Shown: positions 12,722 to 13,565 of the stretch, one piece after another
Layout of the letters: every line of letters begins with the position of its first letter
Numbering within the stretch: the first letter of the stretch is position 1
Origin: an uncultured Candidatus Saccharibacteria bacterium
GTDB taxonomy: Bacteria > Patescibacteriota > Minisyncoccia > Spechtbacterales > 2-12-FULL-38-22
Direction of reading: 5' to 3'
Assembly: GCA_964393575.1 (NCBI GenBank)
Contig: CAYMUG010000001.1
Coordinates: 39,803 to 78,332 of the forward strand
DNA: 38,530 nucleotides
Made by a program: the position numbers

Positions 12722-13565
12722 GATAAGGCATGCAAGTCGAGCGGTCCGGCTTCGGTCGGACAGCGGCAGACGGGTTAGTAACACGTAGGTAGTTGCCCCA
12801 TACTCGGGGATAACCCACCGAAAGGTGGGCTAATATCCGATAGCCTGGTCATTCCTCACTGTGTTCGGAATGAACTATAACTATGACTGTAACCATGACA
12901 GCGATCGCTTTGTGGTCGTACGAAATCGCACCTGCCTGCCGGCAGGCAGGTGCGATTAGTCATTGTCATTGTTATTGTCATCGTTCTCTCCGAGCGTAGC
13001 GAGGAGTGACCAGTAAAGCTCCGGCGGTATGGGAGATGCCTGCGGCCTATCAGCTTGTTGGTGAGATAACAGCTCACCAAGGCAGTGACGGGTAGGGGGT
13101 GTGAGAGCATGATCCCCAACAAGGGCACTGAGACACGGGCCCTACTCCTACGGGAGGCAGCAGTCGAGAATCTTCGGCAATGGGGGAAACCCTGACCGAG
13201 CGACGCCGCGTGGAGGAAGAAGGCCTTAGGGTTGTAAACTCCTTTTCTAGGGGAAGAACTTTTGTGACGGTACCCTAGGAATAAGGGGCTGCCAATCGCG
13301 TGCCAGCAGCAGCGGTAATACGCGAGCCCCAAGCGTTACCCGGAATTATTGGGCGTAAAGGGTCCGTAGGGGGCCCTGCCAGTCTTGTGTTAAATACCGA
13401 GGCCCAACCTCGGTGCTGCGCAGGAAACAGCAGGGCTAGAGGACGCCAGAGGCCGGCGGAACCCGCGGTGTAGGGGTGAAATCCGTTGATATCGCGGGGA
13501 ACACCGAAGGCGAAGGCAGCCGGCTGGGGCGATCCTGACCCTGAGGGACGAAAGCGTGGGTAGCG

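Follow-up and report, generated by a model that had tools for sequence, protein, structure and literature searches.

A family of short hairpin insertions with a common basal helix in 16S and 23S rRNA genes from CPR bacteria

The genes for 16S and 23S rRNA of an uncultured Candidatus Saccharibacteria bacterium, contained in the 38,530-nucleotide stretch of DNA analysed here (the window), are interrupted by four large insertions. There is strong support for the conclusion that all four belong to one homologous family of ORF-less hairpins, which is tied to rRNA transcription units and is widespread in the CPR (Patescibacteria). The original prediction, made from the window alone, was of a single family whose 16S and 23S members, at sites without relation to one another, have a basal helix in common; scans of genome and metagenome collections now reveal the same basal box, CCUCACUGUGUUCGG paired with CCGAGCGUAGCGAGG, in some 55–60 copies (all sources) from many CPR lineages. 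All copies are between 94 and ~310 nt long, are devoid of an ORF and are inserted in the sense orientation. We consider it probable that the family represents a copy-pasted, non-autonomous rRNA intervening sequence (IVS) whose box directs its excision, most likely by RNase III.

Intervening sequences in bacterial rRNA have been known since 1990, and each known case is an oddity of one or two sites. The present family offers a larger natural dataset, with dozens of copies that occupy ~13 rRNA positions of the two subunits as well as leaders and the interior of another insertion. It amounts to a natural mutagenesis series, comprising a defined box with an apparently selected A·C mismatch, a freely covarying outer stem and recent duplications within genes, and it can be used to study which features render an insertion in rRNA excisable and by what route such hairpins move. 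Some of the ‘uncharacterized short insertions’ by which CPR rRNA genes are enlarged, and which hamper assembly and 16S surveys, very probably belong to the family, which moreover supplies a simple sequence signature with which such insertions can be masked. Cultured Saccharibacteria represent a possible experimental system.

Four insertions in one rRNA locus

The 16S rRNA gene (12676..14311, recognised with Rfam and by alignment to E. coli), the genes for tRNA-Ile and tRNA-Ala (15242-15443), the 23S rRNA gene (16870..20333) and the 5S rRNA gene (20486-20599; all of the latter recognised with Rfam) follow one another on the forward strand, on which rnc and the four insertions also lie. 5' of the rRNA genes the ORF annotation of the window comprises rnc, rpsP, a KH-domain gene and trmD; the closest named homologues of TrmD, at ~70% identity, belong to Candidatus Spechtbacteria/Spechtbacterales and other Paceibacterota, which assigns the window to a CPR/Patescibacteria genome. 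The rnc gene (9628..10320), which had been pointed out from the outset and has a clear Pfam match (E = 2e-39), encodes RNase III, a candidate processing enzyme that is mentioned here for context. Since the same synteny is found in relatives without a 16S copy, its location just upstream lends no specific support to the involvement of RNase III.

Compared with E. coli, the 16S gene contains one large insertion, and the 23S gene contains three in addition to two smaller expansions; on re-reading, the sequences of all four are as first described. Copy 1 (12852..13006) is a 155-nt hairpin inserted into the loop of 16S helix 9, after E. coli position ~190. This site had been assigned to helix 10, which is off by one, as E. 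coli 184-193 (GUC-GCAA-GAC) corresponds to helix 9. The termini of copy 1, 5'-UUCCUCACUGUGUUCGGA and 5'-UCCGAGCGUAGCGAGGAG, pair over 18 positions with 13 Watson-Crick pairs, four G·U pairs and one A·C mismatch, in agreement with the helix of ~18 bp with one A/C mismatch and several G-U pairs that had been drawn for them. The 5' box CTCACTGTGTTCG (12855..12867) includes the conserved mismatched A (A12858), which is faced by C13000 in the 3' box CGAGCGTAGCGAG (12991..13003).

Copy 2 (17451..17618) is a 168-nt hairpin in 23S helix 25, after E. coli ~546, with its boxes at 17454-17466 and 17603-17615. Copy 3 (18843..18953), a hairpin of 111 nt at the helix 63 position of the 23S rRNA (E. coli ~1704-1767) with boxes at 18846-18858 and 18938-18950, resembles copy 2 in shortened form, the interior identity between the two being 89%. 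Copy 4 (19637..19811) is a 175-nt hairpin at 23S E. coli ~2353-2365, in which CACACTGTGTGTG at 19641-19653 pairs with CGCGCGTAGCGCG at 19795-19807, leaving two A·C mismatches; it represents a variant subfamily, a relative of which occupies the H63 site in another carrier (locus L025). In E. coli numbering we take the three 23S sites to be H25, H63 and H86.

In copies 1-3 the first letters are (A/G)TTCCTCACTGTGTTCGGAA and the last are CCGAGCGTAGCGAGG(A/T)G. The same termini had been ascribed to the 16S copy and to the first two 23S insertions, which is correct for copy 2, whereas copy 3 ends in GAGGUG and not in GAGGAG; the core said to recur at the base of copy 4 is indeed present there as CACTGTGT, accompanied by the variant box. 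Within the 38.5 kb CACTGTGT occurs exactly four times, always on the forward strand and each time at the 5' base of an insertion, compared to a chance expectation of 0.43 derived from shuffled sequences (none of 100 shuffles reaches four). All four insertions are predicted to form long hairpins as extensions of the host helix, and the z-scores of the folds are -7.8 to -12. They display two hallmarks of IVSs, namely additional sequence at the end of an rRNA helix for which homologous rRNAs have no counterpart (E. coli and Rfam, and for helix 9 also relatives), and complementary termini that give rise to an extended double-stranded stem, as judged from folds and covariation. The interior of copy 1, which contains a nested GC-rich palindrome, has no kinship to the interiors of copies 2-4. 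In the window, the basal helix is the sole part that the 16S copy and the 23S copies have in common.

Known intron classes do not describe these elements. As had been maintained from the start, the insertions contain neither an ORF, the longest internal one having 38 codons, nor a group I or group II intron: no intron model of Rfam is matched at gathering or permissive thresholds, and the insertions are simple hairpins which, at 111-175 nt, are too short. The permissive search of Rfam 15 returned only generic hairpin (miRNA-precursor) models, far below their cut-offs, and no model of the family. Archaeal-type bulge-helix-bulge introns have, where exon and intron meet, a 4-bp helix that lies between two 3-nt bulges; here the basal helix is continuous save for the 1x1 A·C mismatch, and this class is likewise rejected. 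What the family shares with group I, group II and bulge-helix-bulge introns is that it interrupts rRNA genes, in the CPR partly in the same regions.

Distribution and spread of the family

The two-arm pattern CACTGTGTKYG-N(115-145)-CGMGCGTAGCGMG, which matches three of the four copies in the window where none is expected, was used to scan one genome per species from 185,579 species. It returned 17 loci, about eight times the ~2 expected by chance, where all chance expectations are our own calculations and assume even base composition. Twelve of the 17 loci lie inside bacterial 16S or 23S genes. A further copy, from a member of the Saccharibacteria (L013), is located in the leader ~170 nt upstream of the 16S start, and another (L010) is intergenic on a DPANN archaeal contig that also carries archaeal-type pilin and PIN/AbrB genes. 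Three loci, from Bryobacteraceae, Gemmatimonas and Akkermansia, were rejected as chance matches that are GC-rich, lack a hairpin or have an arm inside coding sequence.

The organisms with rRNA-borne matches are labelled Andersenbacteria, Peregrinibacteria, Peribacteria, Saccharibacteria, Moraniibacteriota, Parcubacteria and Patescibacteria, and there are also two contigs labelled ‘Bdellovibrionales’ and one labelled ‘Bathyarchaeia’. The 23S sequences of the latter three cluster together at 82% identity, and a protein encoded beside one of them is, among named sequences, most closely related to proteins of Moraniibacteriota and other Patescibacteria; on these grounds we treat all three as CPR contigs with wrong bin labels. 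With the wrong labels and the chance matches removed, no non-CPR bacterium is left among the two-arm matches. When either 13-nt arm was sought at the same loci with as many as three mismatches, additional copies (a second, a third and more) came to light within the same rRNA genes.

Metagenomes were scanned with the 5' arm CGYNYCTCACTGTGTTCGG alone, yielding 102 stretches of which 80 were listed as loci, and the partner arm was sought by its base-pairing to 21 positions of the 5' side. Among the loci listed the pairing score is bimodal, with 18-21 pairs in 42 matches and 14-17 pairs in 39. The low-score group consists of GC-rich coding sequences in about the number expected by chance, and the high-score group contains ~40 true copies. 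These were sampled without length restriction and form hairpins of 94 to ~310 nt, with no ORF-sized member among them. Of the 39 metagenome copies that could be placed by means of the 3' arm, 38 are flanked by 16S or 23S sequence, on one side or on both, and each of these is in the sense orientation. Of the copies from the genome scan 13 of 14 belong to rRNA units, and ~97% of the true copies do so, with the caveat that the carriers are all metagenome assemblies and that related organisms do not contribute independent copies. A single copy, L063, is situated between genes for proteins, on a contig without rRNA.

Taking all sources together, the family occupies ~13 rRNA positions in addition to leaders and one larger insertion; these positions are given here in E. 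coli numbering, and the helices are presumably those named. The 16S sites are ~70-91 (h6), ~190-198 (h9/h10), ~453-473 (h17) and ~1419. The 23S sites comprise ~130-145 (H9), ~270-286, ~540-548 (H25), ~645-658, ~1160-1173 (H45), ~1712-1742 (H63), ~2212-2215 (H79) and ~2356 (H86). A nested copy is found ~145 nt inside an insertion of ~1.3 kb at 23S ~2594, and of the copies that flank the genes one is located in a 16S leader and one 45 nt before a 23S 5' end. The copy at 16S ~1419 adjoins a group I intron.

The interiors of the hairpins provide evidence for duplication within genomes. Their identity amounts to 98% between the copies at ~280 and ~546 of L023, 97% between those at ~280 and ~2215 of L022 and 87% between those at ~280 and ~546 of L011, with the H25 and H63 copies of the window (89%, as given above) in between; comparisons between genomes reach 79% at most. 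Shuffled controls average 49% and peak at 73%, a high background similarity that results from the AT-rich, low-complexity interiors. In L025 practically identical copies are present at ~145 and ~546, and a single 23S gene contains at least five family members. Near-identical copies at different sites of one genome bear out the early view of the insertions as a copy-pasted element or a shared processing determinant, as opposed to independent helix growth, and so do the empty 16S helix 9 of close Spechtbacterales and the RNA-level constraint on the basal helix described below.

Four Spechtbacterales relatives with ~87% 16S identity, whose rRNA starts were found via TrmD-based synteny, possess a plain ACC-GAAA-GGU helix 9 without a copy. 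The outer stem CCUGGUCA/UGACCAGG is not the ancestral helix 9, given what the relatives carry in its place. One of the four (L002) harbours a variant of the family at h17, and two others of the four have unrelated hairpins at h17 and h6. Such patchy occupancy among relatives implies a fast turnover, and indicates that the sites are generic permissive positions that other types of insertion use as well. The ends of the tracts shared by copies of the same genome vary, in that the outer stem differs in L023 and the tract reaches further out in L011; owing to these variable ends, gene conversion between existing copies fits at least as well as fixed-end transposition.

The basal helix and constraint on the transcript

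The arms of 27 copies were aligned over 34 nt each and joined by an artificial AAAA linker. Standard pairs occupy 85% of the cells of this alignment compared to 74% after shuffling, with none of 500 shuffles reaching the observed value, and to 34-46% in a control in which the partners were slid by 1-3 columns. Sixteen pairs have changes on both sides and are concentrated in the outer stem. One covarying column pair reads C-G in 16 copies and U-A in eight, and another reads A-U in 13, U-A in seven and G-C in three. Second-copy variants keep the helix too by compensatory changes, as in L012, where a G-C pair is altered to A-U and several U·G pairs to C-G. The 13-nt core is conserved in sequence across the 27 copies, a conservation that is inflated because the search patterns fixed most of the core positions.

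The A in the motif CUC-A-CUG faces a C in every one of the 27 aligned copies. Among 34 distinct copies that were chosen on the 5' arm alone, the partner of this A is a C in 31, and the neighbouring U·G has become U-A in nine. A single C-to-U change would be sufficient to close the A·C pair, and from the retention of the C in nearly the entire 5'-arm sample the mismatch appears to be under selection.

The common fold of 59 copies begins with an outer stem of at least 11 bp that includes CUC/GAG, followed by the 1x1 A·C mismatch and by a segment of 9-10 bp in which CUGUGUUCGG pairs with CCGAGCGUAG, three G·U pairs included; the apical part consists of a small internal loop and then an AU-rich helix. 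Between the A·C mismatch and the internal loop lies about one turn of helix. The two features may serve to place or limit a cut, or a factor of greater specificity may read them.

The fold of the sense strand is more stable than that of the antisense strand in 50 of the 59 copies, the mean difference being 9.2 kcal/mol (Wilcoxon p = 2e-9). A covariance model, as suggested together with the original prediction, was built from the arms and the artificial linker; it scores copy 3 with 60 bits in sense and 22 bits in antisense. As a means of finding copies it recovered only eight under default filters and returned only generic terminator-like hairpins with the filters off, and string searches with mismatches were more informative. 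The stabler sense folds, the sense-strand score of the model and the fixed orientation of the copies show that the constraint acts on the transcript of the rRNA strand. Viewed as DNA the two arms match at 11 of 15 positions, and all of the differences are transitions that preserve pairing in the sense-strand RNA.

Excision, spread and comparison with known elements

As a non-autonomous IVS, each copy would be transcribed within the pre-rRNA, its sense strand would fold into the long hairpin, and the sequence-conserved basal box would be what determines processing. An endonuclease with specificity for double strands, most probably the RNase III of the cell, would cut in or beside the box, upon which the hairpin would be removed and the rRNA would persist as non-covalently held fragments, like classical bacterial IVSs. 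Copy-paste or gene conversion would spread and homogenise the family within a genome between permissive positions of the rRNA unit, which include surface helices, leaders and even other insertions, and copies would be gained and lost between lineages.

We infer excision by RNase III from the use of the classical positions H9, H25 and H45 in conjunction with the long double-stranded stem, and from the analogy to the Coxiella IVS, which has a 28-bp terminal stem with one mismatch and is cut by RNase III in the middle of that stem (PMC4990558). The reported absence of CPR rRNA insertions from transcripts (Brown et al. 2015, as summarised in PMC11270868) points in the same direction, and short ORF-less CPR insertions have been suspected before of being RNase III-processed IVSs (Tsurumaki et al. 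2024; PMC11270868). A role in the mature ribosome is disfavoured by the copies that occupy leaders, a spacer or a further insertion. Speaking against the IVS reading, two copies, L063 and L010, are situated outside rRNA units.

RNase III in general needs little sequence specificity, and for that reason the enzyme by itself would leave the conserved box and the invariant A·C mismatch unexplained. A dedicated, sequence-specific factor that reads the A·C box, such as a Mini-III-type endoribonuclease or an endonuclease acting with a ligase, in which case the rRNA would possibly be religated, is a tentative alternative that we judge unlikely. The retention of the box and its A·C across CPR phyla, next to a stem that covaries freely, is the signature that sequence-specific recognition would leave, and some copies are found where fragmentation might be costly, near h44 or inside the insertion at E. 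coli 2594. Set against this are the inflation of core conservation by the way in which the copies were found, the lack of a bulge-helix-bulge geometry and of a candidate enzyme among the scanned ORFs of the window, and the fact that characterised bacterial IVSs all use RNase III (PMC4990558). An extension of this idea would make the box the recognition site of a dedicated system that both excises the hairpin and propagates it between permissive rRNA loops, either by RNA cleavage and ligation followed by a return to DNA or by a transcription-coupled DNA mechanism. We offer it as speculation with a small chance of being right; if true, the family would represent a novel type of non-autonomous mobile element that is specific to rRNA and is common to the CPR and occasionally to DPANN archaea.

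The spread of the hairpins could also be sought at the level of DNA, in a MITE-like element whose imperfect TIRs are read by a transposase or nuclease encoded elsewhere, with the hairpin merely making insertion into rRNA tolerable. Several near-identical copies per genome and patchiness among relatives suit such an element, as do the non-rRNA copies, namely L010 in an archaeon and L063, near which there is an imperfect direct repeat, AAGGGG(G)TTGAC. Still, the near-confinement of true copies to rRNA transcription units (the ~97% above), all in sense, and arm differences that are exactly those keeping the sense-strand RNA paired make it a rather improbable account. The rRNA copies are not bordered by a target-site duplication, their flanks being the two halves of the host helix; there is no ORF-bearing member among the ~40 copies sampled irrespective of length; and the 5'-arm pattern has zero matches in viral contigs. 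An autonomous partner element was not found, and the scanned ORFs of the window include no transposase, homing endonuclease or reverse transcriptase.

That the hairpins are retained as CPR-specific expansion segments of the rRNA, with the box binding a ribosomal or assembly protein, we regard as very doubtful. The rRNA sites are variable surface helices that bear expansion segments in other lineages, and the box is both conserved and sense-specific, all of which is compatible with retention; yet part of the copies lie outside the mature rRNA, in leaders, spacers and another insertion, occupancy is patchy even among close relatives, the interiors evolve freely, and transcripts reportedly lack the CPR insertions (Brown et al., via PMC11270868). 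Chance, independent helix expansion or assembly artefacts, for which nothing speaks beyond the AT-rich, low-complexity interiors and their 49% mean identity after shuffling, can be dismissed in view of 13+13-nt boxes that are identical in dozens of independent assemblies, a number of hits about eightfold the chance expectation, the bimodal pairing scores and the covarying outer stem.

Classical 23S IVSs that are processed by RNase III occur in H25/H45 of Salmonella and Yersinia, in H9 of alphaproteobacteria and in H45 of Leptospira and Coxiella. The CPR family resembles them in that stem-loops replace the tips of surface helices, the complementary termini form a long dsRNA stem and relatives carry the insertions only sporadically; the CPR hairpins, too, make use of H9, H25 and H45. 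Unlike the classical IVSs, which reside in one or two 23S helices, the CPR family is found at ~13 positions of the 16S and 23S rRNAs, in leaders and in another insertion, always in one fixed orientation and with near-identical copies at different sites of one gene. Its basal box and A·C are furthermore conserved across the superphylum, and its excision is predicted. In contrast to IVSs that carry an ORF for the four-helix-bundle 23S rRNA IVS protein S23p/IVP (PF05635) the family never bears that ORF, the copies in the window having at most 38 codons.

Other short palindromic repeats invite comparison. Correia elements (CREE), which like other transcribed MITEs are cut by RNase III, form hairpins that are substrates of this enzyme and are accompanied by target-site duplications, and the insertions of Rickettsia palindromic elements into functional genes fall at surface positions where they are tolerated. 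Like both, the CPR hairpins are short, non-autonomous palindromic repeats that form hairpins in transcripts. Whereas the Correia and Rickettsia elements are scattered genome-wide in both orientations, the CPR family is nearly confined to rRNA units and to the sense orientation, and, unlike Correia elements, its rRNA copies have no target duplication.

The original prediction had come with the remark that its author knew of no basal helix spanning 16S and 23S, and in accordance with this such a helix is absent from Rfam and from the searchable literature; when the running text of openly available papers was searched for the box strings and for accounts of an IVS base in common, nothing relevant emerged. 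The nearest published counterparts are the ‘uncharacterized’ CPR insertions of Tsurumaki et al. (2024), which occur in the same organisms, are shorter than 200-250 bp, match no intron model and contain no ORF (PMC11270868). The CPR hairpin family very probably forms part of this bin. In the accessible part of that paper the insertions are catalogued by position and length, and a common basal helix, a box, a family that extends across sites or duplication within genomes do not feature there; the insertions are described as frequent at 23IS2 and 23IS4 and as abundant in Saccharibacteria.

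Family copies outside rRNA genes and within larger insertions

The sole clear bacterial copy of the hairpin family outside an rRNA unit is found at L063 (L-numbers denote loci from our genome and metagenome scans and synteny relatives), where it occupies ~3176-3354 on the minus strand with one protein-coding gene on either side. AAGGGG(G)TTGAC flanks this copy as a direct repeat that is imperfect, and the downstream repeat forms a promoter-like TTGACA-17-TAAAAT. On a Nanoarchaeota (DPANN) contig, a family copy (L010, 1627-1784, minus strand) is intergenic rather than located in an rRNA gene and adjoins an AbrB/PIN toxin–antitoxin pair; it matches the 5' box at 12 of 13 positions and the 3' box at all 13, with the A·C mismatch present. 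This copy may reflect a transfer from CPR to DPANN.

Larger insertions within rRNA genes also harbour the family. In L035, as well as in L038 and L055, the 23S gene has an insertion of ~1.3 kb at position ~2594 (E. coli numbering, here and below) that contains a family copy ~145 nt in, and in L102 a copy adjoins a group I intron near 16S position ~1419. With copies lying inside or directly against such larger insertions or introns of rRNA genes, other intervening sequences are therefore also colonised by the element.

Diverged, box-less and unrelated insertions

The 23S gene of L025 spans 4,024 nt (420-4443) and is interrupted at 12 or more separate places by insertions that are each 40-142 nt long. 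Diverged family members account for several of them, among these a relative, at the H63 site, of the variant subfamily represented in the window by copy 4. In L014, the H45 insertion (4708-4839) has a family-like interior (GGAAUUUUGAAA...UUUGAAAUUCC) without the conserved box, and may be a decayed or truncated family member. Upstream of this 23S gene, at 413-548, the CPR contig matches the Rfam LOOT RNA with 63.8 bits, above the gathering score. Both contigs, together with L021, belong to bins labelled Bathyarchaeia archaeon or Bdellovibrionales, yet all three possess bacterial 23S genes that cluster with one another, and neighbouring genes are most closely related to those of Moraniibacteriota/Patescibacteria. 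These bins have probably been mislabelled.

Within the window, the 16S copy (copy 1) includes a perfect 15-bp GC-rich palindrome at 12925-12956 (AAATCGCACCTGCCTGCC GG CAGGCAGGTGCGATT), which forms a side branch within an otherwise AT-rich interior, is not present in window copies 2-4 and may constitute a nested secondary insertion. Two further expansions of the 23S gene relative to E. coli are without the box: one of 43 nt after ~288 (17152-17194) and one of 53 nt after ~586 (17656-17708). The former resides at the ~270-286 position, where many other CPR genomes have a family copy.

Two Spechtbacterales relatives have hairpin insertions of 60-77 nt at 16S h6 and h17 (L004, 11088-11163; L006, 4956-5033). 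Their bases, CCCCUUCACUUGG...CCAAGUGAGGGG and CCCCCACUUGG...CCAAGUGGGGG, are alike and differ from those of the boxed family, and the hairpins may represent a second multi-site family.

Layout of the rRNA locus and a TrmD homologue

The rRNA 'operon' of the window is broken up by protein-coding genes (14312-16869). Between the 16S gene and tRNA-Ile is an ORF of 127 aa (14561-14944) that matches nothing in Pfam, and a mechanosensitive-channel TM-helix domain occurs in the 226-aa protein encoded between tRNA-Ala and the 23S gene (15831-16511). Terminator-like hairpins are situated 3' of the 16S gene (~14442-14479) and 3' of the 127-aa ORF (15009-15030), and a near-consensus promoter, TTGACA-18-TAAAAT, precedes the 23S gene (16668-16697). 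Transcription may be divided into separate units for the 16S gene, for the tRNAs and for the 23S-5S pair.

The search for TrmD homologues also recovered a 332-aa homologue (P0048) with an extra GIY-YIG nuclease domain (PF01541).
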